Source of the DNA: an uncultured Bacteroidota bacterium
Lineage (GTDB): Bacteria; Bacteroidota; Bacteroidia; Flavobacteriales_D; Sanyastnellaceae
Direction: 5' to 3'
NCBI GenBank assembly: GCA_903932685.1
Contig: CAIZGX010000058.1
Coordinates: 634-64,633, forward strand
Length of the DNA stretch: 64,000 nt
Of the stretch, positions 239 through 61,553 are shown piece by piece. The number at the start of each line of letters is the position of its first letter. Positions within the stretch are counted from its first letter, which is position 1. A program made the translations under genes and the position numbers. Under the pieces are notes generated by a model that was not told where the DNA came from, ran no database searches, and saw only the letters and a list, made by a program, of their open reading frames with translations.

Positions 239-1576
239 ATGGCTCCTCGCAAACAAAGAAAAATTTATGTGCTAGACACTTCTGTTCTTCTGCACGACCA
301 CAACAGTATTAACAGTTTCGAAGACAACTATGTTGCTATTCCCATAACTGTTTTAGAGGAGTTAGATAAGTTCAAAGTTGGAAATGAAAATAAAAATTTC
401 GAAGCACGTGAAACCATTCGAATCATTGACAGATTGTCTTCAACACACACACTGAATGCTTGGGTTCCTTTAGGAAACGGACACGGAGGGAAATTCAAAA
501 TTATTTTAGATATAGACCTTTCAGCGAACGACGATGCTGAAGCGATCTTTCAATCAAAGAAAAACGATCATAAAATCTTGAATGCGGCTATAGTTCTTCA
601 GAAGCAAGAAAAGAATAGCAAGGTTGTGTTGGTTACGAAAGACATTAACCTTCGTATCAAGGGGAAGGCGTTAGATATAGTTGCTGAAGATTACAAAACC
701 GGAAAAGTTAAAGAAAGTGTTACGGCTTATCGAGGTTATAGTGTTTTGGAGAATGTTTCAGCTGAAGCCATTCGAAAGCTATACACAGCAGGTGAATTGA
801 AAGACGCAAAGATCTTAGGTAAAGAAAAGCATAACAATCATTTTTATGTTTTGAAGTCAGGGACTTCGAGTGCACTTGCTTTTCACGGTGGAATAGAAAA
901 GAAAATTGAGCGTATAGATAAAGTTTATGCCATGGGCATTAAACCCAAGAATGCGGAACAAGCTTTCGCGCTTCATGCCATTATGAATCCTGAAATTAAA
1001 TTAATCACAATTTCGGGTGTTGCGGGAACAGGAAAAACCTTACTTGCATTAGCGGGTTCTTTGGAAATGAGAAATGGATTCGATCAATTGATTTTAGCGC
1101 GACCGATTATTCCACTTTCAAACAGAGATATTGGTTTCCTTCCAGGAGATGCCGAGGAAAAGGTTTCCCCCTATATGCAACCTTTATTCGATAATTTGAA
1201 TTTTATTAAGAAACAATATTCTGAGAATGAAAAAAAGCGTAAAGTAATCGACGAAATGCAAGCCGATGGAAGAATTATGATTACGCCGTTAGCGTTCATT
1301 CGCGGAAGAAGTCTTTCCAATTGTGTGTTTATTATAGATGAGGCCCAGAACTTGACTCCACACGAAGTGAAGACAATTATTACGCGAGCGGGGGAAAACA
1401 CGAAAGTTATTTTAACCGGAGATGTTCGTCAGATTGACACTCCTTATTTAGATGAGCAATCGAACGGTTTGTCATACGTAATGGATAGATTGAAAGGACA
1501 AGATTTATATTGTCACATTACACTCGAAAAAGGAGAAAGAAGCGAGCTAGCGAACCTAGCGAATGAGATGCTTTAG
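239..1576 (+). CDS. PhoH-like ATPase with N-terminal PIN domain (PhoH2/YlaK type)
   Basis: 445-aa ORF with a PIN-like N-terminus (IYVLDTSVLLHD), Walker A (GVAGTGKT) and Walker B (FIIDEAQN). Confidence 0.85.
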   Translation: MAPRKQRKIYVLDTSVLLHDHNSINSFEDNYVAIPITVLEELDKFKVGNENKNFEARETIRIIDRLSSTHTLNAWVPLGNGHGGKFKIILDIDLSANDDAEAIFQSKKNDHKILNAAIVLQKQEKNSKVVLVTKDINLRIKGKALDIVAEDYKTGKVKESVTAYRGYSVLENVSAEAIRKLYTAGELKDAKILGKEKHNNHFYVLKSGTSSALAFHGGIEKKIERIDKVYAMGIKPKNAEQAFALHAIMNPEIKLITISGVAGTGKTLLALAGSLEMRNGFDQLILARPIIPLSNRDIGFLPGDAEEKVSPYMQPLFDNLNFIKKQYSENEKKRKVIDEMQADGRIMITPLAFIRGRSLSNCVFIIDEAQNLTPHEVKTIITRAGENTKVILTGDVRQIDTPYLDEQSNGLSYVMDRLKGQDLYCHITLEKGERSELANLANEML

Positions 1577-19644: not shown

Positions 19645-19752
19645 AAATGTCTGCGACTAATGTGCAAGCACGAATGCCGATGGCTAATGTCTACGACGAA
19701 TGTCTGCGACTAATGTGCAAGCACGAATGCCGTTGGCGAATGTCTTTCAGAC
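19645..19752 (+). repeat. mini-hairpin string, NAAT-linker family (8 hairpins, 53-bp higher-order repeat)
   Basis: The sequence reads GTC-TGC-GAC TAAT GTGC-AA-GCAC GAAT GCC-GAT-GGC TAAT GTC-TAC-GAC GAAT, then the block restarts at 19702 and ends with GTCT-TTC-AGAC at 19742-19752. Confidence 0.8.
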
Positions 19753-21474: not shown

Positions 21475-21596
21475 TTCATCCTTCAAAGAAGGTCATCACG
21501 AAGTGTCATCACAATGTGTTGTGTCATCACGACCTGTCGTGTCATCGGCTACGCCGTCATCCAGCTTCGCTGGTAATCACAACTTGTTGTGTAGTT
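21475..21596 (+). repeat. mini-hairpin string, TCAT-linker (GTCATC core) family, array A
   Basis: Perfect GTCATC at 21492, 21505, 21523, 21541 and 21556. Degenerate copies are TTCATC (21475), GTAATC (21573) and GTAGTT (21591). All 7 intervening words are self-complementary. Confidence 0.85.
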
Positions 21597-28802: not shown

Positions 28803-30899
28803 ATGAGGTATTTCAACGAGCAACTGGTAACAGATCTTGAGTTTCAAGAGATTCGCAATGTGCTGTCTTCGTTCGCGAAGCAGCCCACTGCTGCTGCTGC
28901 ATTGTTGGAACTTTCGCCTTATGGAAATTTCGATTTGTGGAAATGGACCCTTGAGATCACACATGAACTCAAGACCCTTTTGCAAAACGACATTGCTATT
29001 CCGGCTTTGGATTTCAAAGAGTTCGGTGAAGAGTTGAAATTGCTTCGAGTGAAAGATGCGGTGCTGGCGGAAGAGAGCTTCGCTAAAATTCTTCAGGGTA
29101 TTCGCATTATTGGTTTGTTGAAGAACATTCCTGAAGAAGTGCGCTTATCGGTTCCGTGCTTGAACGAATTGATTCAAACCTGCGAATACACCGATGAGAT
29201 AGAGATTGAAATCTTGAAAATCTTCGATGCGAAGTGGTTGGTGCGCGACGAAGCGTCTCATGAACTTTCTGTTATTAGACACGAAATTGTTGCCACCCGA
29301 AGGGAAATCTCTAAGAACTTTTTGAGAGTCATGAAAGACTGTCAAGGCAAAGGATTCTTGGGAGATACCGGAGAAGCTTATTTGTTAGACCGAAGAGTAT
29401 TGAGCGTGTTGAGTGTATACAAGCGAAAGGTGCCCGGGAATGTCTTGGGGACGAGCAAGACGGGAGTTTTAACATACATAGAGCCGGGAGTGAATACACT
29501 TTTGAATTCACAAATGGAAATGCTTTTCGGCGATGAACGCGCTGAAATTCGGAAGATTCTTCAACGACTCACACGTTACTTATCCGGACACGCAGTTATG
29601 TTGAAGTCGGTATTGGATACCCTTCTTCAACTCGATAATATTCAGGCACGTGTGCGCTTGGCTGTGCTCATGAGTGCTCAGAAGGTTCAGTTTGTTTCAG
29701 AGCCAACTGTGAAACTCAACAAAGCTTTTCATCCGCTCTTGCTTTTGAAAAATGCAGAGCGAGGAAAAAAGACTATTCCGCAATCGTTGGAACTAAACAG
29801 TGAGCAGCGCATGATGGTTATCTCCGGTCCGAATGCAGGAGGAAAAAGTATAACGTTGAAGACAGTTGGACTTATACAACTTATGTGGGAATGCGCATTG
29901 CTTGTGCCTGCTGAAGAGTCGAGTGTGTTAAGTCGATTCGATTGCATACTCACCGACATTGGCGACAATCAGAGTATAGAGAATCAGCTGTCAACGTATT
30001 CGTATCGGTTGAAGCGCATGAAGTTTTTCTTGGATTCAGCGAATAGAAGATCACTGATTTTGTTAGATGAATTTGGAACGGGATCAGACCCGGAATTGGG
30101 TGGCGCCTTGGCCGAAGTTTTTTTCGAAGAGTTATATGCGCGAAAATCGTTTGGAGTGATAACCACGCACTTTTCCCCCATTAAAATTAAAGCTTCGCAA
30201 TTGCGTAATGCGGTGAATGGATGTATGCTTTTCAATACAGCAACTTTGGAGCCGACATACATCCTCAGTGTTGGCGAACCGGGCTCTTCGTTCACTTTCG
30301 AAGTGGCGAAGATGAATGGAATTCCGGAAGATTTATTGGATCGTGCGAAGAAGAAATTAAGCAAGCAGAAAATTGAAATGGATAGTTTGCTTTCCGATTT
30401 ACAACGACAGAAATCTGAGTTGGAGACGGGTATATCGGCCGCCAGAAAACAAGAGGCGAGCGCAAGAAAAGAGGAGCAAACTTTTCAATCTAAATTGGAA
30501 AAACTTCAAGATAAATTAGACAAGCAGCAAGTGACTTCCGAAAGAAATAACAAGTATATTATTTTAGGAAAGAAGGCAGATCAACTGGTAGAGAAATTCA
30601 ATCTTCGCGCGAAGAATAAAGATGTACTAGAAGAGCTAAAGAAATTTGTTGCGGTGGAAAAGACAGAGCGCGAAGAATCTCGAAAAAAGAAGAGGGTTCT
30701 TACAGAATCTAAAGTTAAGACTGCGACCAAAGAAAAGGTTATTCAAGATCGAAAGAAAATGATTGCGGGAGCTACTGTTCGATTGGAAAAGACGCAACAG
30801 ATAGGTGAAATTCTCGAAGTCATTGGCGAAACAGCTACGGTAGCTTTCGGAGTGTTTAAGACAAAAGTTGAATTAGGAAAACTTCTCTTAATCCGTTAG
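28803..30899 (+). CDS. mutS2: MutS2-family protein lacking the C-terminal Smr domain
   Basis: MutS domain V ATPase (SGPNAGGKS, LLDEFGTGSDP), a long coiled coil and a KOW-like C-terminus. The ORF ends without an Smr domain. Confidence 0.8.
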   Translation: MRYFNEQLVTDLEFQEIRNVLSSFAKQPTAAAALLELSPYGNFDLWKWTLEITHELKTLLQNDIAIPALDFKEFGEELKLLRVKDAVLAEESFAKILQGIRIIGLLKNIPEEVRLSVPCLNELIQTCEYTDEIEIEILKIFDAKWLVRDEASHELSVIRHEIVATRREISKNFLRVMKDCQGKGFLGDTGEAYLLDRRVLSVLSVYKRKVPGNVLGTSKTGVLTYIEPGVNTLLNSQMEMLFGDERAEIRKILQRLTRYLSGHAVMLKSVLDTLLQLDNIQARVRLAVLMSAQKVQFVSEPTVKLNKAFHPLLLLKNAERGKKTIPQSLELNSEQRMMVISGPNAGGKSITLKTVGLIQLMWECALLVPAEESSVLSRFDCILTDIGDNQSIENQLSTYSYRLKRMKFFLDSANRRSLILLDEFGTGSDPELGGALAEVFFEELYARKSFGVITTHFSPIKIKASQLRNAVNGCMLFNTATLEPTYILSVGEPGSSFTFEVAKMNGIPEDLLDRAKKKLSKQKIEMDSLLSDLQRQKSELETGISAARKQEASARKEEQTFQSKLEKLQDKLDKQQVTSERNNKYIILGKKADQLVEKFNLRAKNKDVLEELKKFVAVEKTEREESRKKKRVLTESKVKTATKEKVIQDRKKMIAGATVRLEKTQQIGEILEVIGETATVAFGVFKTKVELGKLLLIR

Positions 30900-42201: not shown

Positions 42202-43463
42202 GCACGCCACTTGCGGAAAGAATGCGTCCGAAGACATTCGATGAATACGTTGGACAATCGCATTTGATTGGCAAGGGCGCTGTGTTGCGCAGTATTATTG
42301 AAAGCGGACATATACCAAGCATGATTTTCTGGGGCCCTCCGGGTGTTGGGAAAACAACGTTAGCAAATATCATTGCGCAAACACAACAACGTCCTTTCTT
42401 TTCGCTTTCTGCCATCAATAGCGGAGTGAAAGAAATTCGTGAAGTGTTAGATCAAGCCGGAAAGGGCGGACTGTTTCAGAAGAGTGCTATTTTATTCATC
42501 GACGAGATTCATCGCTTTTCAAAGAGCCAGCAAGATTCATTACTCGGTGCGGTTGAGAAGGGAGTTGTAACTCTTATTGGCGCGACAACAGAAAACCCTT
42601 CATTCGAAGTGAACGGCGCCTTGTTGTCGCGCTCGCAGGTATACACCCTGAATGCGCTCACCAAAGATGAACTCAATCAGTTATTGGAAGACGTCATTGT
42701 TCGCGATGAAGCGCTTCGCGCTAGGAATATTCAATTAGAGGAAACGCAATCCTTATTGAAATACAGCGGCGGCGATGCCCGCCGATTGCTAAATGTACTT
42801 GAGTTAGTTGTTGAATCCATTTCAGAGACGCCTTGCGTCATTAAAAACGAATCAGTAGAGAACGTCATTCAAACAAATGCTGCACGTTACGACAAGACCG
42901 GTGAAATGCATTACGATGTCATCTCAGCGTTTATTAAAAGCGTTCGCGGAAGTCATGCGCAAGCAGCAACATATTATCTAGCGCGCATGATTAAAGGCGG
43001 AGAAGACCCGCTATTTATAGCGCGAAGATTGGTCATATTGGCTTCAGAAGACATTGGATTAGCGAATCCGAATGCGCTATTGATTTCGGAAGCAACCTTT
43101 CGCGCTGTTCAAAATATAGGCTGGCCTGAAGCGCGCATTCCACTAAGTATGTGCACAGTGTATTTGGCAACCAGCGCGAAAAGCAATTCTGTCTATACCG
43201 CCATTGACGCCGCTTTGGCGTTGGTGGAACAAACGGGAGATTTGCCTGTGCCTATGCATCTTCGCAATGCTCCAACGAAATTAATGAAGGAGTTGGGATA
43301 CGGAAAGAACTACGAATACGCGCATGCGCACGAAGGGAATTTTGTTCGTCAAGAATTTCTTCCAGAAGAAATTGCATCGTCAGAATTCTACACGCCAGGA
43401 AACAATCCGAAGGAAGCGGCTATTCTAAAATGGCTTCAAGAACGTTGGGGAACGAATGAATAA
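42198..43463 (+). CDS. rarA: replication-associated recombination protein A (AAA+ ATPase)
   Basis: LAERMRP...[20 protein letters not shown] and a MgsA C-terminal domain. Confidence 0.9.
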
Positions 43464-44532
43464 TAACACGACACGAAACTTTGGACTCGATTTATTTCGA
43501 GCGTTGGCCATTGTGTTGGTTGTGTTGTCTCACGGAAAATTTTTGTTGAATGGAACGGTTCTAGAGAATTTTCCGTTCGTGAAAATGCTCGACGGCGTTG
43601 ATTTGTTTTTCGTGTTAAGCGGATTTTTAATTGGCGGAATTTTATTGAAGTCCTCTTCTGAAGGATTGAATTGGCGAGGCATTGCGCACTTTTGGAAGAG
43701 AAGATGGTTGCGCACTTTGCCGAATTATTATTTGATCTTGTTCTTGAATTTCATTTTCATTTCTTGTGGAATTATTTCCGGAGACTTAACTGTTTTCGGT
43801 TGGAAGTTTATTGTATTCCTTCAAAATTTCACAAAGCCGCTCATTGGATTTTTCTGGGAGTCGTGGAGCTTGGCAGTTGAGGAGTGGTTCTACATTTTTA
43901 CTCCAGTTATGCTTTGGGGACTACTGAAAGTGTTTCGATTGAAATGGGCTTATCTCATTGCAACGCTTGTAATGATTGCTGTTCCCTTGATCTATCGCGC
44001 TTATTCCTTTGATTCGAAGCTCGACGATTTCTGGTTCGATGTGCAGGTCCGAAAGATTGTGGTCTTTCGACTCGATGCTATTGCATTCGGATTGTTGCTC
44101 GCCTGGATTTGTTCTTTCCATAAAGATCTTTGGGACAAGTGGAAAAACGTAGGGCTTGTTTTGGGTTTGGCAATAGTTTTATTCTTGTTGAATAACAGCG
44201 CTTCCAACGCAACTTTTTATCGTCAAGTATTTTATTTCAGCATAACACCTTTCGCTATAGCACTTATCCTTCCTTGGTTTGAAGGGATTACTTCTTCATG
44301 GAAGCGCTTGGTAAGTGCCGTGACGCACATCAGTAAGATTTCGTATTCGATGTATTTAATTAACCTTGCGCTCGTTGCCCAAGTCATCGGATTGAATTTT
44401 CCTGTTCAAGGAAATGCAGATGGGATAATGAAGTACGTTGCCTATTGGTTTATTGTGATTACAGTCTCTTCGGCGCTTTACTACTTTGTGGAAAGACCGA
44501 TTCTTCGGTGGAGAGATGACGCTTCGCGATGA
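43456..44532 (+). CDS. acyltransferase family 3 membrane protein (OafA-like)
   Basis: N-terminal GLDLFRALAIVLVVLSH and about 10 TM helices. The last five codons and the stop lie inside hairpin array B. Confidence 0.75.
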   Translation: MNNNTTRNFGLDLFRALAIVLVVLSHGKFLLNGTVLENFPFVKMLDGVDLFFVLSGFLIGGILLKSSSEGLNWRGIAHFWKRRWLRTLPNYYLILFLNFIFISCGIISGDLTVFGWKFIVFLQNFTKPLIGFFWESWSLAVEEWFYIFTPVMLWGLLKVFRLKWAYLIATLVMIAVPLIYRAYSFDSKLDDFWFDVQVRKIVVFRLDAIAFGLLLAWICSFHKDLWDKWKNVGLVLGLAIVLFLLNNSASNATFYRQVFYFSITPFAIALILPWFEGITSSWKRLVSAVTHISKISYSMYLINLALVAQVIGLNFPVQGNADGIMKYVAYWFIVITVSSALYYFVERPILRWRDDASR

Positions 44533-44631
44533 CGCAACGCGTTGCGATGACACAACACGACGTGATGACAATCTGCGATTGATGACCACTTCGTGGATGA
44601 CGGCGAAGCCGATGACCGCGCAGCGGATTAA
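44515..44631 (-). repeat. mini-hairpin string, GTCATC family, array B (inverted orientation)
   Basis: GATGAC on the + strand at 44515, 44528, 44546, 44564, 44581, 44596 and 44611, with a degenerate GATTAA at 44626. Six of 7 words are self-complementary. Confidence 0.85.
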
Positions 44632-45647
44632 TGAATGTGGTTTGCGATGTTACGTGCGATGGAAGGACCTTCGTAGATGAAGCCCGTGTATACTTGAACA
44701 AGGGAAGCACCTGCATCTATTTTTTCTTGCGCATTTTGTGAAGTGTGAATTCCTCCAACGCCAATGATTGGAAATGCGCCGTTCGATTTTGAATGCAAAT
44801 AGCGAATCACATCGGTTGAACGCGCACGCACAGGAGCTCCGCTCAATCCGCCCATTCCAATGCTTTGAATGGTTTGTGTACTCGTTTGCAAATTCTCTCT
44901 TGAAATGGTTGTGTTCGTTGCAATGACTCCCGCAATTTTTGTTTGAAGAACAATTTCAACAATGTCATTCAATTGATCGTCTGTTAAATCCGGAGCAATT
45001 TTTAAAAAGATTGGACGCGGTTTTGGGAAGGTGTTATTTGTTTCAGCAAGAGCAGAAAGAATTTTCATTAATGGCTCTTTCTCTTGCAACTCGCGTAAAC
45101 CCGGTGTATTCGGAGAGCTTACATTCACCACGAAATAATCTACACAATCGTGAAGGGCATTCAAACAAATTAAATAATCACTCAACGCATCTTCATTCGG
45201 AGTGATTTTATTCTTTCCGATATTTCCTCCAACAATAATATTTGATTTTCGTTTTCTCAAGCGTACTGCAGCGTCTTCAACCCCACCGTTATTAAATCCC
45301 ATGCGATTAATCAACCCATTATCTAACGGAAGTCTGAATAATCGTGGTTTGTCATTTCCAGGTTGTGCCTTCGGAGTAAGCGTTCCGATTTCCACATGTC
45401 CGAATCCTAACAATGCCAACTCATCTATCCAACGCGCATCCTTATCAAACCCAGCAGCCAATCCCACCTTATTGGGAAATTCAATTCCTGCTACAACAAT
45501 CTTGTTTTCTTTCGCTTTGAAAATTGATTTTAAAATCATTTTTCCTCCAGGCATTCTTGAAGAAAATTTCAATAAATCCATGGCCAAGTAATGCGCCTTC
45601 TCCGGAGAAAAAAGAAAAAAGAAAGGTTTAATCAGAAGCTTATACAT
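44628..45647 (-). CDS. pyrD: dihydroorotate dehydrogenase (quinone), class 2
   Basis: [18 protein letters not shown] and GVGGI motifs. Start taken at [11 protein letters not shown] (45647). Confidence 0.9.
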
Positions 45648-45661
45648 GCTGCAAAAATACA

Positions 45662-45892
45662 GCATCTCATCCATCAATCGTAGATTGTCATCACCTTCGG
45701 TGTCATCCGCTCCGCGGTCATCGGCTTCGCCGTCATCAATCGCAGATTGTCATCACCTTCGGTGTCATCCGCTCCGCGGTCATCGGCTTCGCCGTCATCA
45801 ATCGCAGATTGTCATCACCTTCGGTGTCATCGCAACGCGTTGCGTCATCGCGAAGCGTCATCCGCTCCGCGGTCATCCACGAAGTGGTAATG
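45662..45892 (+). repeat. mini-hairpin string, GTCATC family, array C (largest, with a 62-bp higher-order repeat)
   Basis: 13 perfect GTCATC cores between 45687 and 45877. The 14 intervening or flanking words are all self-complementary. Blocks 45687-45748 and 45749-45810 are identical. Confidence 0.9.
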
Positions 45893-45995: not shown

Positions 45996-46547
45996 ATGAT
46001 TACATTTTTTGGAAAAAAGAAAATCTCAGCAGAACGCGCAGCAACGCTGTTCGTGAATACACTGTTGGATTCAGTGGAAGGTGGTTTTTCGGAAGTTGCT
46101 GGATTTATCCGCGATACGCCTGAGCTAGTTAGTACTCCGAAAATTAGTGATGAGGAATACGGTAAATTCTTAATGATTGCCATTGTAGGAAACTTCAATT
46201 ACTTAAATGAGCATTTCCGCGATGGTGAAGGCGATTTAATTGTTCAGCATTGTATAGATCAGTTCGCACCTGTTTTCGATTTGTCTCCAATTGCCTTCCA
46301 AGCCAAATTGAACGACTACAAGAAGTTCATGGCTCATGTTAATTTCCCTTCGAAGAATATTTTGTACAGCATGTCTAAGGCTGTATTCTTCAAATATGAA
46401 TTGAATCAATACCAAGACGAGTATTTCAGAAGCATGAATACGCCGAATCCAATTTTCTTGAAGAGCTTGGATGAAGTGATGCGTAATTTCATTTGGGACT
46501 GGGAAGCATTCTGCGACAAATACAAGGTTCAGTTAGGCGGAGCCTAA
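45996..46547 (+). CDS. hypothetical cytoplasmic protein (183 aa)
   Basis: ORF only, apparently helical, with no signal peptide or motif recognised. It is bracketed by arrays C and D. Confidence 0.5.
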   Translation: MITFFGKKKISAERAATLFVNTLLDSVEGGFSEVAGFIRDTPELVSTPKISDEEYGKFLMIAIVGNFNYLNEHFRDGEGDLIVQHCIDQFAPVFDLSPIAFQAKLNDYKKFMAHVNFPSKNILYSMSKAVFFKYELNQYQDEYFRSMNTPNPIFLKSLDEVMRNFIWDWEAFCDKYKVQLGGA

Positions 46548-53279: not shown

Positions 53280-54800
53280 ATGTATAAAGCAATTCGTGCC
53301 CTACTCGTTTTTTCTGTTGTAATATCCTGTTTGTGCGCATCCTCCCAAGTAGAAGTCGTTAAGCAAAAACGATTCGAACATAACGGTGCTGTCGCAACAA
53401 GCGTTACTCCAAGCAATAAGGTAATAACCTATTCCATTATTTCGGAAAAAGGAGAAGACGATCAGTTGGAAATTGTCGCCTATGATGAAAAATTAGAGGA
53501 AGAAGGAAGGTTTCAAGCGAAATGTTCAGAGCGAAATATTTTCAAGACGCACGCTCTTTCGGGAACAGGAGAGTATTATTTCTCTCTAATGATTGATAAG
53601 GGAAGAGAAATTCATTCCGTTGTTTTTAATACAAGCACTTTGGAAGGAACAGAACTTCGTGTACCGTTGGAGAGGAAATTCGAACCGAATGGAAATTTGG
53701 ATTTCTTCGGCGGATCTTCGACCACTTGTTTCAAGAATAAATTTTTCATTTTAGGTACTGTTAAAAATGTGCCCTGTATACTTGTGTACAACATGCAAAC
53801 AGGAACACAGCACATTACCTTCATTCCAGGTATGGACAAGAATAACCGCGTTTCCTTTTTAAGCACGGTGGAAGCAGCTCCTTCAATTCAAGTTATGTTT
53901 TTTCATTCCAAACCGAAGAAGATTGATGCGCAATACATTGTTTCAATCAATGAATTCGGAGAGATAGAAGGAAAGCCAGTTTCGATTATGGCGCAGAAAG
54001 AAAAATTGCTTATCGATGGGAATGTGACTTGGGTAGATGAGCACACTTCTCTTATTTGCGGAGCAACAGGTGAGAAATCGAGCATCGCAAAGGGTATGTA
54101 TATTTTGGAAATAAAAGATGGAGAAGTCGTTCGAAGAAACGATTACAATTTCAATGATTTCAAAGATTTTTATTCACTCTTGAGTGTAAAGACACAGAAT
54201 AAAATTGAAAAAAAGAAAAGCAAAAAGAAGAATTTCGAATCGCAGTGCTACATGGTTACTCACCCGGTCGCGTTCAGCGATAAAACATGGACGGTTGTAG
54301 GAGAGGTGTTTTATCCGACTTACCGCGCCGAGACCCAGACCTCTTATGTGAATGGGAAGACCGTTACGCGAACCGTAATGGTATTCGATGGATTCCAATA
54401 TACGCACGCGGTTGTCTTGCAGGTAAATGAAGAGTTAGAAAAGATCAATGACTTTACATTTGAATTAGAAATTTCGGAGAATCCTATGTTTCCGAAGAAA
54501 TACATTCGCACTGCTCAAATGGGATCTCAGTTGAATTTCTATTACGCGGATGTCTTTAATTTTGGACATGTTTCTCTTGAAGAAGGGGAATTGGAAGTTT
54601 CTCCATTGGTTGATATTGTTGATTCTGACAAGGATTTAAAGGATTCAGAGAAAGTGACCAACCTCATTAACTCGAATGTAAAATATTGGTACAAAGATTT
54701 TTATCTAATTACCGAAACATTTCGGGCAAAGGATAGTGATGAGTCACTTGGTAATAAGCGTAAAATGTTCGTTCAATTCAAAAAAATAAAAATTGAATAA
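53280..54800 (+). CDS. secreted hypothetical protein (506 aa)
   Basis: Signal peptide only. No motif recognised. Confidence 0.55.
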   Translation: MYKAIRALLVFSVVISCLCASSQVEVVKQKRFEHNGAVATSVTPSNKVITYSIISEKGEDDQLEIVAYDEKLEEEGRFQAKCSERNIFKTHALSGTGEYYFSLMIDKGREIHSVVFNTSTLEGTELRVPLERKFEPNGNLDFFGGSSTTCFKNKFFILGTVKNVPCILVYNMQTGTQHITFIPGMDKNNRVSFLSTVEAAPSIQVMFFHSKPKKIDAQYIVSINEFGEIEGKPVSIMAQKEKLLIDGNVTWVDEHTSLICGATGEKSSIAKGMYILEIKDGEVVRRNDYNFNDFKDFYSLLSVKTQNKIEKKKSKKKNFESQCYMVTHPVAFSDKTWTVVGEVFYPTYRAETQTSYVNGKTVTRTVMVFDGFQYTHAVVLQVNEELEKINDFTFELEISENPMFPKKYIRTAQMGSQLNFYYADVFNFGHVSLEEGELEVSPLVDIVDSDKDLKDSEKVTNLINSNVKYWYKDFYLITETFRAKDSDESLGNKRKMFVQFKKIKIE

Positions 54801-58048: not shown

Positions 58049-58196
58049 CTCATCACAACGTGTGGTGTCATCCGCTCCGCGGTCATCGGCTTCGCCGTCA
58101 TCAATCTCCGATTGTCATCACCTTCGGTGTCATCGGCTTTGCCGTCATCCACGAAGTGGTCATCAATCTCCGATTGTCATCCGCTCCGCGGTATTG
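58049..58196 (+). repeat. mini-hairpin string, GTCATC family, array E
   Basis: Perfect GTCATC at 58067, 58082, 58097, 58114, 58129, 58144, 58159 and 58176. Degenerate copies are CTCATC (58049) and GTATTG (58191). Eight of 9 words are self-complementary. Confidence 0.85.
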
Positions 58197-58210: not shown

Positions 58211-58798
58211 ATGGAATTCAAAAAAGGAGATCACGTTCGTTTTTTAAACGATACCGGAGAGGGAGTAATCGTCGGTTTCCCTCAAGCCGATACCGCTACG
58301 GTAGAGGATAGCAGTGGCTTTCCATTCGATCACCCACTTCGAGAATTAGTAAAAATTGAAAATTCAAAACACGAGTTTTCACAATACAATCAAGTGCAGC
58401 CGAATACGCGCGAGATGCTCGATCGGAATTTGGACGCGCATGCAGTGAAAGCGGCATCGAAAGACTTCAAGAACAGATACAAAGAGCGCGCGGCGAATGA
58501 CTTTCCACACAACGCCGATTTGTTCGAGGTTGATTTGCACATTCATGAATTGCTCGACAATTATGAGCGCATGACGAACGGAGAAATCGTAACCATTCAA
58601 ATGGAACACTTCGAGCGTATGCTGGCCATTGCAGAAAAGAAAAAAGTTAAGAAGGTTATTTTCATTCATGGAGTGGGGCAGGGAGTCTTGCGCGCAGAGA
58701 TTCGTTCATTCATCAAAAGCTATTATCCACAATGTGAATTCCTCGATGGGAATTACCAGAAATACGGACACGGCGCAACAGAAGTTAGATTCAGATAA
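58211..58798 (+). CDS. Smr domain protein with KOW-like N-terminus
   Basis: C-terminal Smr pattern (VDLHIHEL...VIFIHGVGQGVLR). N-terminal FKKGDHVRFLNDTGEGVIVGF. Confidence 0.75.
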   Translation: MEFKKGDHVRFLNDTGEGVIVGFPQADTATVEDSSGFPFDHPLRELVKIENSKHEFSQYNQVQPNTREMLDRNLDAHAVKAASKDFKNRYKERAANDFPHNADLFEVDLHIHELLDNYERMTNGEIVTIQMEHFERMLAIAEKKKVKKVIFIHGVGQGVLRAEIRSFIKSYYPQCEFLDGNYQKYGHGATEVRFR

Positions 58799-60430: not shown

Positions 60431-60507
60431 GGCATTGTAGCTCAACTGGATAGAGCATCGCACTACGGATGCGAAGGTTTGGGGTTCGAATCCCTACAGT
60501 GTCACCA
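60431..60507 (+). tRNA. tRNA-Arg (anticodon ACG)
   Basis: Hand-folded cloverleaf. Acceptor GGCATTG/CAGTGTC, D arm GCTC/GAGC, anticodon stem TCGCA/TGCGA with loop CTACGGA, T arm TGGGG-TTCGAAT-CCCTA, and an encoded CCA. 77 nt. Confidence 0.9.
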
Positions 60508-60521
60508 TCAAGCAACCAAAT

Positions 60522-60545
60522 CCCCGACGACAGTTGGGGGTTTTT
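60522..60545 (+). terminator. rho-independent terminator after tRNA-Arg
   Basis: CCCCGAC-GACA-GTTGGGG hairpin followed by GTTTTT. Confidence 0.55.
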
Positions 60546-60557
60546 GGTTTAAGGAAT

Positions 60558-60668
60558 GTCTCATTCTCATTCTGTTTCTCTAACTCATTCAGATTCTCTT
60601 TCCCATTCTGTTTCTCATACTCATTCAGATTCTCTTTCCCATTCTGTTTCTCATACTCATTCTGAATT
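60558..60668. repeat. 36-bp tandem repeat (2 full copies plus partial copies on both sides)
   Basis: ACTCATTCAGATTCTCTTTCCCATTCTGTTTCTCAT at 60583-60618 is repeated exactly at 60619-60654. There are partial copies at 60558-60582 and 60655-60668. Confidence 0.85.
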
Positions 60669-60733
60669 TTTGGTAACTACCCTAGATGCTTTCAAATGCC
60701 TTCATTCGATAGAAATTCGGAGGCTTTAATTTA

Positions 60734-60760
60734 TTTGTACGGAATTTTACCGTACATTTG
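60734..60760 (+). promoter_or_regulatory. putative promoter and operator of the toxin-antitoxin operon
   Basis: Inverted repeat TGTACGG (60736-60742) / CCGTACA (60750-60756) overlaps a TACATTTG -7 box (60753-60760). It lies 6 nt upstream of the antitoxin ATG. Confidence 0.4.
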
Positions 60761-60765
60761 TAATT

Positions 60766-61059
60766 ATGAAAATGGAGAAGAATCTTTCGTCACGAATTGA
60801 AGTGCGCCTCACATCTGAGCAAAAGGAGCTGTTCGAAAACGCTGCACAACTTGCTGGGCATAGAAGCCTAAGTGATTTTATTGTACAAACCATTCAGGCT
60901 AAGGCTTCCGAAGTGGTAAATCAACAAGCTGCAATAACGTTAAGCAAAAGAGACGCTGTAATGTTTGTCGATTTAATCACCAACGCGCCAAAGCCAAACG
61001 CTAAGCTCAAGAAAGCTTATGCTAACTACCGAAAACTTTCTATGGTGGCTGAGAAGTAA
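60766..61059 (+). CDS. DUF1778 (RHH, TacA-like) type II antitoxin
   Basis: 97 aa with the typical DUF1778 N-terminus (RIEVRLTSEQKELFENAAQLAGHRSLSDFIV). Its stop overlaps the start of the GNAT gene (TAATG). Confidence 0.8.
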   Translation: MKMEKNLSSRIEVRLTSEQKELFENAAQLAGHRSLSDFIVQTIQAKASEVVNQQAAITLSKRDAVMFVDLITNAPKPNAKLKKAYANYRKLSMVAEK

Positions 61060-61553
61060 TGGAGATTCTTGACAAGAAAAAACACGCGATTGAAAAATTC
61101 AATTGTGGAAATGAAGCACTGAATCGCTATCTAACTGTTCAAGCTGGACAGGATATGCGAAAGAAATTGTCGGTGTGTTTTGTTTTGAACGATGACTATA
61201 CGCGCGATTTAATCGGTTATTATACGCTCTCTTCATTCGCAATTAATGCCGATGCAATTCCAAATACAATTAAGGTGAGCGCTCCACGGAATTATTCTAA
61301 AATTCCTGCTACTCTACTTGGACGTTTGGCTATTGACTTGAAATTTCAGGGAAAAGGGTTAGGTGAATTTGTTTTAATGAATGCGCTTGAGCGTGCGCAT
61401 GATGCGAGTTTAAAGATTGGATCCTTGGCTGTAATTGTTGATCCTATTGACAAGGCGGCTGAAGATTTTTATTCTCAATACGGATTTGTAAAGTGTAAGG
61501 ATGGTCATCAAATGATGTTGGCAATGAAGACTATTGCTACCTTGTTAAACTAA
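61059..61553 (+). CDS. GNAT family acetyltransferase toxin (TacT/AtaT-like)
   Basis: 164 aa. FNCGNEALNRYL...QD near the N-terminus and the acetyl-CoA motif GRLAIDLKFQGKGLGEFVL. Translationally coupled to the DUF1778 gene. Confidence 0.8.
   Translation: MEILDKKKHAIEKFNCGNEALNRYLTVQAGQDMRKKLSVCFVLNDDYTRDLIGYYTLSSFAINADAIPNTIKVSAPRNYSKIPATLLGRLAIDLKFQGKGLGEFVLMNALERAHDASLKIGSLAVIVDPIDKAAEDFYSQYGFVKCKDGHQMMLAMKTIATLLN

Follow-up and report, generated by a model that had tools for sequence, protein, structure and literature searches.

In a stretch of 64,000 nucleotides from contig CAIZGX010000058.1 of an uncultured Bacteroidota bacterium (the window in what follows) we have analyzed a string of very short inverted repeats which lies upstream of pyrD and which we call array C. 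Its words are mini-hairpins clamped by a C and a G and joined by the tetranucleotide TCAT, and such TCAT arrays apparently form an undescribed repeat family of freshwater Flavobacteriales that resembles the repetitive extragenic palindromic (REP) elements. We consider it probable that array C belongs, as one of many loci, to a non-coding, REP-like and lineage-specific family which is structured as single-stranded DNA, is mobile and recombinogenic, and spreads in a manner that depends on its structure. The layout of array C is as follows.

45667..45891, + strand: array C, with a leader TCAT-CCAT, 14 mini-hairpin words joined by TCAT and a terminal TAAT linker at 45888-45891
45675-45687: first word of array C, CAATCGTAGATTG
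45877-45887: last word of array C, CCACGAAGTGG
45687..45831, + strand: 62-bp higher-order repeat in array C with the words CACC-CCGC-CGGC-CAATC

Array C is flanked by pyrD (44628-45647, − strand) on one side and on the other by a conserved gene for a protein of 183 aa (45996-46547, + strand). An earlier note, made from the letters alone, had counted 13 GTCATC hexamers with degenerate copies at both ends. All these cores (starting at 45687, 45702, 45717, 45732, 45749, 45764, 45779, 45794, 45811, 45826, 45844, 45857 and 45872) and the degenerate ones at the edges (CCATC at 45671-45675 and GTAATG at 45887-45892) lie where the note had placed them. It had further described palindromic words and an exact 62-bp repeat, and both were borne out. 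An inverted-repeat check showed that all words are perfect inverted repeats with a C...G clamp, a stem of 3-6 bp and a loop of 2-3 nt. The first copy of the 62-bp block (45687-45748) is followed by an exact second copy (45749-45810) and a partial third one from 45811, and Tandem Repeats Finder reported the region 45672-45831 with a period of 62 nt, 2.6 copies and 98% matches. The units of a coding tandem repeat would be multiples of three within an open reading frame (ORF); here lengths of 13, 15, 17 and 18 nt are mixed and the array is intergenic, which excludes both a peptide repeat and a phased array of sites, in agreement with the note. Array C was recovered in independent ENA, JGI, NCBI and Logan assemblies and is therefore not an assembly artefact. 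The strains L125 and L126 (L-numbers denote related strains or loci throughout) have one 62-bp block fewer than the window and L123, a count whose exact value could be affected by short-read assembly.

Array C is not alone. We sampled the family in related freshwater Flavobacteriales/Crocinitomicaceae DNA amounting to about 577 kb, which contains 132 TCAT arrays with 753 units and 156 distinct words, and the shuffled control contains no array. These arrays and the five found in the window are all intergenic, and 760 of 773 interior linkers read TCAT. For a test of palindromy, runs with periodic GTCATC were picked without any palindromy criterion and compared with words whose interiors had been shuffled: 703 of 750 words (94%) are perfect palindromes as against 2.4% for the shuffled interiors. 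A covariation test with 55 distinct 11-nt words gave 98.2% paired cells, compared with 73.8% in 500 shuffles and 24-51% in slid controls, and 54 doubly changed cells, compared with 18 in the shuffles; neither observed value was reached in any of the shuffles (0/500). From the paired cells and the double changes we conclude that the structure is kept while the sequence of the words drifts. The proposal of the earlier note that structure rather than sequence is conserved, and that the array belongs to a dispersed family, thus found support in the number of word types, the compensatory changes and the arrays within the window and beyond it.

A contig scan covering one genome per species was run with a permissive pattern of four GTCATC cores at 15-nt spacing. 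Five of the at least 120 loci listed (L002, L023, L057, L084 and L092) are true hairpin arrays, and among the matches listed these come only from metagenome-assembled genomes of Flavobacteriales and Crocinitomicaceae. We rejected the remaining matches, which are mostly Asp-rich coding repeats in unrelated phyla with spacers that are not palindromic. A metagenome scan with one common word yielded 86 freshwater loci. A scan of viral contigs gave no array match, and BLAST searches against plasmid and phage collections revealed no homologue of the arrays. No covariance model of Rfam matched the arrays at gathering score, the only match in the window being a tRNA outside of them, and at E≤1 there were only chance-level matches to small nucleolar RNAs; the weak C/D-box matches are explained by the UGAUGA present in the reverse strand. 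In the literature we found no description of TCAT arrays or mini-hairpin arrays. The earlier note had not recognized the array as a member of any known repeat family, and these negative searches agree with it.

The hairpins themselves carry features which we count as a signature of DNA rather than of RNA. Triloops predominate, 108 of 119 distinct words close their loop with a C-G pair, and GNA or TNC loops are found in 65 of these 119 words where 12.5% would be expected. Folded as DNA, array C gives beads on a string of predicted hairpins (z −5.1, and −4.75 for the opposite strand), whereas folding as RNA does not reproduce the hairpin string (z −2.3). It is the C-G closing pairs, the GNA/TNC triloops and the folding as DNA and not as RNA together on which we base this assignment. 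For the promoter hairpins of phage N4 it is known that a C:G closing pair and a triloop with 5′G...3′A are required for extrusion at physiological superhelicity (PMC4496689). The same loop signature, that of the d(GCGNAGC)/C(GNA)G mini-hairpins, dominates in the TCAT arrays and is nearly universal in their first hairpins; N4 however has three single promoters read by the phage RNA polymerase, whereas the TCAT arrays place hundreds of hairpins on a bacterial chromosome. To our knowledge the C(GNA)G class is the only class of mini-hairpins shown to extrude at physiological supercoiling. In view of these loops and of array heads of the CGC-GNA-GCG type, the remark of the earlier note on the stable mini-hairpin GCGAAGC was apt.

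The arrays are polar and consist of a GC-only head hairpin with a GNA loop, a variable body and a tail of T followed by A/T-rich sequence. Read along the TCAT strand, the head is the hairpin that comes first. GC-only stems occur in 78% of the heads and 27% of the interior words, GNA loops in 86% and 41%, respectively; CGC-GNA-GCG, CCGC-GAA-GCGG and CCC-GAA-GGG are typical examples of heads. A T flanks every hairpin. On their 5′ side the arrays are flanked by YCAT-like sequences such as CCAT, TAAT and CCCT, of which 59 of 61 keep the T; on the 3′ side there is a T and then A or T. The two strands are not equivalent: single mismatches on the TCAT strand are 14 times G·T and 3 times A·C, and the loops are GAA rather than TTC (212 vs 64), GCA rather than TGC (56 vs 7) and TCC rather than GGA (68 vs 5). 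While all units within an array are direct, whole arrays form pairs, 25 of them head-to-head and none tail-to-tail. About 20 of the head-to-head junctions have the 15-nt centre CCGCTTCGCGGAGCG in common, exactly or with one base changed; this centre is made of two overlapping head hairpins, one per strand, and occurs at at least 10 non-orthologous loci. Identical neighbouring words were observed 4 times where 46 were expected, and by this avoidance the fold of each hairpin stays unambiguous. We also considered whether the two arms of a head-to-head pair form one long REPIN-like hairpin and rejected this, the arms carrying different words. Fold-back replication as the origin of the pairs was likewise rejected, as it predicts tail-to-tail pairs and mirror-image arms, neither of which is seen.

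The other TCAT arrays of the window and a related array are located as follows. Three of the five TCAT arrays are on the + strand and two on the − strand, and together with the sister family they make up 1.3% of the window.

21476..21591, + strand: array A, between the convergent TonB_C and GH20 genes, ending 3 nt from the GH20 stop codon
44516..44630, − strand: array B, with 7 words, reading GATGAC on the + strand, from the last acyltransferase codons to the pyrD stop codon
46548..46656, − strand: array D, which fills the whole space from the stop codon of the 183-aa gene to that of a convergent S41 peptidase gene
58050..58191, + strand: array E, 9 words long, between the divergent eutBC and Smr-domain genes
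19645..19745, + strand: array of a sister family of G...C-clamped mini-hairpins with [G/T]AAT linkers

Comparison of strains shows that the arrays gain, lose and shuffle units by unequal recombination. The outgroup (L224 and L227, with pyrD 74% identical) has no TCAT arrays at the sites B, C and D, and at site D its two convergent stop codons are 3 nt apart. Site B is empty in L129 and L189 apart from one lone hairpin, and an array of 8 units in L169 is missing in L201. Between strains with 98-99% identical flanks the number and order of the words differ at C (10-14 words), B (1, 7 or 9) and E (6-13), so that the difference in unit number which the earlier note had proposed to look for near pyrD does exist. 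Hybrid words such as CGGCTTCGGTG and CACCTTCGCCG mark unequal recombination. The blocks CGCAAC-CGC and CGGC-CCAC-CAATC recur in different arrays, and identical words and multi-word blocks are found at non-orthologous loci. The recurring blocks, the shared CCGCTTCGCGGAGCG centre and the empty sites we count as signs of mobility and copying.

The arrays have also remodelled the order of genes, for which the inversion of pyrD between the arrays B and C is direct evidence. The relevant features are these.

44546..45722, no strand assigned: pyrD segment found inverted by blastn relative to L226, L191, L224 and L227, with breakpoints inside the arrays B and C
44515..44553, no strand assigned: 39-nt inverted-repeat arm in array B, 100% complementary to 45824-45862
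45824..45862, no strand assigned: 39-nt arm in array C that matches the arm in array B perfectly as an inverted repeat
45652..45659, − strand: putative −7 promoter box of pyrD, TATTTTTG, 4 nt upstream of the ATG

In L224, L227, L226 and L191 pyrD has the same direction as its neighbours, and in L226 and L191 there is one array on each side of it, the two forming a head-to-head pair. In the window and in nine related lineages the 1.15-kb pyrD segment is inverted, and the flanks are collinear. The 39-nt arms in array B and in array C have the sequence of inverted repeats on which recombination can act. With its breakpoints inside both arrays, the inversion makes array C a chimera of the old array upstream and the old array downstream of pyrD. 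The earlier note had placed array C in a divergent promoter region; this is correct for the source genome, but it is a derived state. In trees built by neighbour joining from pyrD and from the 183-aa gene the inverted and the non-inverted lineages interleave, and the inverted type was monophyletic in 0 of 200 bootstraps in the pyrD tree and in the 183-aa-gene tree alike. The flip of pyrD was therefore probably recurrent, the alternative being recombination between lineages. The TATTTTTG box is inside the inverted segment and travels with pyrD, and the outgroup has TATCTTTG at equal spacing. A TTG located 15 nt upstream of the box is the end of the first hairpin word. From the TAnnTTTG consensus of the Bacteroidetes we infer that TATTTTTG is a −7 box. 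Besides rearranging genes the arrays overwrite and re-supply stop codons, and the terminal TAAT linker of array B provides the TAA stop codon of pyrD. On the other side of array B, the C-terminus (DDASR and stop) of the acyltransferase gene (43456-44532 of the window) is encoded by an array B unit.

Linkers other than TCAT were also observed. The [G/T]AAT sister family, whose hairpins in the window are GTC-TGC-GAC, GTGC-AA-GCAC and GCC-GAT-GGC and whose array there directly follows an intrinsic terminator downstream of rplT, is present in L144, L208, L183 and L145 as well. A third family has TCAA/TTGA linkers (ATCAAT/ATTGAT; L157 4551-4700, L158 6436-6592, L184 3306-3431 and L187 577-662), and it switches orientation inside the array at a TTAA junction, which the TCAT family does not do. 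In the outgroup the spacer between pyrD and the hypothetical gene holds a short array of C[C/T]TC-linked hairpins, GTAAC-GTA-GTTAC among them (L224 5028-5093 and L225 1684-1749). This array at the same intergenic site suggests that the linker families are lineage-specific. Taken together, the GAAT, TCAA and CYTC linker families point to a general module of a hairpin and a tetranucleotide, with tags that are specific to a lineage or an enzyme.

The spread of the TCAT family might be envisaged as follows. The unit is a C...G-clamped mini-hairpin of 9-15 nt together with the tetranucleotide TCAT. The constraint would act on the TCAT strand as single-stranded or supercoil-extruded DNA, in which the words would fold as mini-hairpins of the C(GNA)G type and TCAT would be unpaired. 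Blocks of units would be copied to new intergenic sites by a strand-specific and structure-dependent process. Its most likely agent would be a nicking-joining enzyme of the HUH/Y1 kind that acts at the linker, as with REP elements and their REP-associated tyrosine transposases (RAYTs) or with the insertion sequences (IS) IS200/IS605; template-switch copying seeded by shared words could be an alternative agent. An array once seeded would grow until coding or promoter constraints, namely stop codons and promoters, halt its growth, and the arrays would be remodelled by slippage and gene conversion and serve as substrates for recombination. A role for the host, such as protection of mRNA 3′ ends or buffering of supercoils, would be secondary.

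Several points weigh against this proposal. Neither the window nor about 0.8 Mb of related array-bearing loci yielded a transposase or HUH gene, and a regular-expression search of all six frames of the latter for the HUH...Y motif of RAYT/IS200 enzymes gave no match; this sample is too small to exclude a single-copy gene. We found no clean insertion of a single unit with a defined target duplication, and all the changes are explicable by recombination or slippage. The terminal linkers are degenerate (TAAT, TATT, CCAT), unlike what strict IS608-like insertion predicts. Relative to the GC skew there are three arrays on the + and two on the − strand, unlike the preference of IS200/IS605 insertions for one replication strand, five arrays being too few in this respect. 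Finally, the asymmetry of G·T and A·C mismatches rests on 17 words, and the copy number per genome is extrapolated from the sampled loci.

REP-type elements are classic selfish or domesticated hairpin DNA and are known mostly from Proteobacteria. The earlier note had named REP elements with the bacterial interspersed mosaic elements (BIMEs) and IS200/IS605 as the nearest analogues, and as an analogy this holds, but the tag and the unit size do not correspond, and no HUH/Y1 gene was found in the about 0.8 Mb searched. Like the TCAT arrays, REP/BIME elements are dispersed high-copy extragenic palindromes with a tetranucleotide beside the hairpin and co-varying stems; they are intergenic and often found just past stop codons, they are strain-variable and recombinogenic, and one DNA strand is read. 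REP units, however, are imperfect palindromes of about 20-40 nt with stems of 7-13 bp and a family-specific sequence, whereas TCAT units are 13-18 nt long (words of 9-15 nt and the 4-nt linker), with stems of 3-6 bp and more than 150 sequences. In the place of the GTAG, GT[AG]G or CGTC tag of the REPs (GTAG or CGTC as published; PMC3733652; PMC6006769) there is TCAT on both sides of the units. BIMEs alternate the orientation of their REPs, whereas TCAT units are direct and only whole arrays pair. A RAYT gene flanked by repeats (a REPtron) would contain an HUH...Y ORF, and none was found in the window and the array-bearing loci searched. From Fluviicola taffensis a TnpA-Y1 of subclass 2.6 has been reported (PMC6006769 supplementary file 1, Figure S7). 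The REPs that go with this subclass of Bacteroidetes RAYTs are called 'atypical' and have GCTAG/GCTGG and stems of 8-10 bp (PMC6006769 Table S1). We rejected the assignment of the TCAT arrays to these atypical REPs, tag and stems being of a different kind.

The ends of the IS200/IS605 elements IS608 and ISDra2 are, like our arrays, small hairpins of single-stranded DNA with a tetranucleotide as cleavage or target site, and an element of this type which inserts 3′ of a tetranucleotide and ends in that same tetranucleotide would build such strings. IS200/IS605 elements carry TnpA (Y1)/TnpB between distinct left and right ends, whereas the arrays have neither such an ORF nor such ends. They insert 3′ of a specific tetra- or pentanucleotide, with a bias for one replication strand; the arrays have a YCAT-like 5′ flank and occur in both orientations (five arrays). 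The hairpins of IS200/IS605 measure 20-25 nt (PMC6006769), those of the TCAT arrays being much shorter. A CRISPR array, which consists of identical repeats of 24-48 nt and unique spacers of similar length, does not correspond either: here the 'repeat' has 4-6 nt and the 'spacers' are palindromes of 9-15 nt which recur at many loci. Very short repeats that form hairpins or preserve them and are mobile or expanding, tandem, intergenic and confined to one lineage are known as the STRR heptamers of cyanobacteria and the SDR of Nostoc; these belong to another phylum, have another unit structure and lack a fixed 4-nt linker between self-complementary words.

It is possible, if doubtful, that the arrays are a mutational by-product without enzyme or function, produced by slippage, microhomology template switching, gene conversion and quasipalindrome correction. 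The hybrid words and the block duplications do show unequal recombination, array B resembles an inverted, incomplete copy of array C that was seeded at a pre-existing CGCGAAGCG hairpin, palindromic words are the same on both strands so that switches between strands are easy, and no transposase was found in the window or the roughly 0.8 Mb searched. What such processes leave unexplained are the use of one and the same tetranucleotide in 98% of the linkers at more than 100 loci, the coexistence of distinct linker families, the polar design of head, body and tail, the exclusive head-to-head pairing with one conserved centre at at least 10 loci, the strand asymmetries, the strong avoidance of identical neighbours and the entry into a seedless intergenic gap of 3 nt at site D. 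At the other extreme, the arrays might come from a system that works on single-stranded or extruded DNA, in which a dedicated enzyme writes a minimal module, one C(GNA)G mini-hairpin together with the tetranucleotide of the family (TCAT, GAAT, TCAA or CYTC), into intergenic DNA; the polar arrays so produced might extrude under negative supercoiling and serve both as topological buffers and as inversion switches of the genes between them, for instance pyrD. We regard this as unlikely; if true, such enzyme-written modules would be a new class of genome-structuring element and not a REP variant.

The position of the arrays relative to genes bears on a function at the level of RNA. In co-directional contexts the arrays are found 24 times in sense and 25 times in antisense orientation, and 28 arrays lie in convergent and 17 in divergent contexts. 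A bias with respect to replication was examined within the window and its five arrays: the GC skew is uniformly positive across the window, yet the arrays occur in both orientations. From the even orientation and from both orientations under uniform skew we conclude that the strand specificity is the element's own and not that of host transcription. The tabulation of location and orientation proposed by the earlier note thus gave intergenic arrays without bias relative to the transcription of the neighbours. Edges that face the 3′ end of a gene overlap the stop codon or lie within 5 nt of it in 61 of 104 cases, and edges facing gene starts keep a spacing of 20-150 nt. Terminal linkers, TAAT for example, often serve as stop codon, and at three sites the adjacent stop codon is TAA with the array and TGA or TAG without it. 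The neighbours are housekeeping genes without common function, and clustering of the neighbouring proteins revealed no recurrent array-associated gene beyond orthologous loci. A gene for a four-helix-bundle protein of the 23S rRNA intervening-sequence type (L092 410-808) has TCAT arrays on both sides; the gene is also present in L173, L184 and L201 and recurs in the sample only at orthologous sites.

The arrays could in principle act in transcripts, either as hairpins that protect mRNA 3′ ends or terminate transcription, or as UCAU motifs for an RNA-binding protein (a sponge or a cis-regulator, similar to MAEB or CsrB). The frequent location at stop codons, the ability of the palindromes to fold in transcripts from either strand and the preference for G·U-compatible mismatches on the TCAT strand would fit, and the MAEB of Burkholderia, an intergenic small hairpin in tandem with a conserved linker, is a precedent. 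The MAEB hairpin is repeated 2-12 times, and whether it works at the level of RNA, of DNA or as a repeat is undecided (PMC1950547). Its hairpin positions are conserved, and 132 of 141 MAEBs are in a 5′ regulatory configuration beside metabolic genes (PMC1950547), whereas the TCAT stems are variable and the arrays show neither a preferred orientation nor a recurrent gene family. We hold an RNA element to be quite unlikely: the even orientation means that a UCAU-specific function would not be tied to host transcripts, the arrays lie equally at promoters and gene ends, the loops are DNA-type triloops and not UUCG or GNRA tetraloops, the minimum-free-energy fold of the RNA is not a string of hairpins and its z score is only −2.3, and no Rfam match was found. 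A conserved role in regulation is also hard to reconcile with the fast turnover of units and with the lack of arrays in close relatives. Rho-utilisation sites or UCAU sites of the KH type were rejected, as these depend on orientation, whereas the arrays have no orientation bias. Most improbable of all is an array of iteron-like GTCATC/GATGAC sites in double-stranded DNA for a regulator or nucleoid protein, for although the hexamer core is invariant and repeated and the arrays lie in intergenic or promoter regions, the spacing of 13, 15, 17 and 18 bp is not helically phased, the neighbouring housekeeping genes share no function, and neither the self-complementary spacers with their compensatory changes nor the GNA loops with C-G closing pairs are accounted for.

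Compared with the REPs the family represents a much smaller, modular solution, in which a 3-6 bp hairpin of almost any sequence and a fixed tetranucleotide are assembled into polar arrays in an abundant group of uncultured freshwater Flavobacteriales. Hundreds of C(GNA)G-class DNA mini-hairpins that co-vary are available in the arrays as a natural data set, and the arrays also provide a search image for the missing enzyme, which should be linker-specific, hairpin-dependent and strand-specific. There is also a practical side, as the arrays break short-read assemblies and mislead gene callers by spurious ORFs and extended N-termini of pyrD. The public pyrD calls (P0001-P0011) are 30-50 codons too long because their ORFs extend into the array.

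Some further features of the window may be mentioned. Directly downstream of array E there is a stand-alone Smr-domain gene (58211-58798), in which a TATTTTTG box precedes the ATG by 5 nt, and the window also encodes a MutS2-like protein without Smr domain (MutS_V + MSSS; 28803-30899). After a tRNA (60431-60504) come an 18/36-nt tandem repeat with the motif TCTCATTC (60559-60664), a TacA/GNAT-type toxin-antitoxin pair and a Por_Secre_tail/CBM48 gene (60431-61553 onward for the whole group). This block of about 3 kb from 60431 onward is missing in strain L134, which marks it as a strain-variable islet at the tRNA. A hypothetical gene for a protein of 506 aa without Pfam hit (53280-54800) is found in the window, L121 and L133 and not in L122, L124 and L134. 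The start of the window (239-1576) encodes a fusion of PIN_4 with a PhoH-like ATPase.

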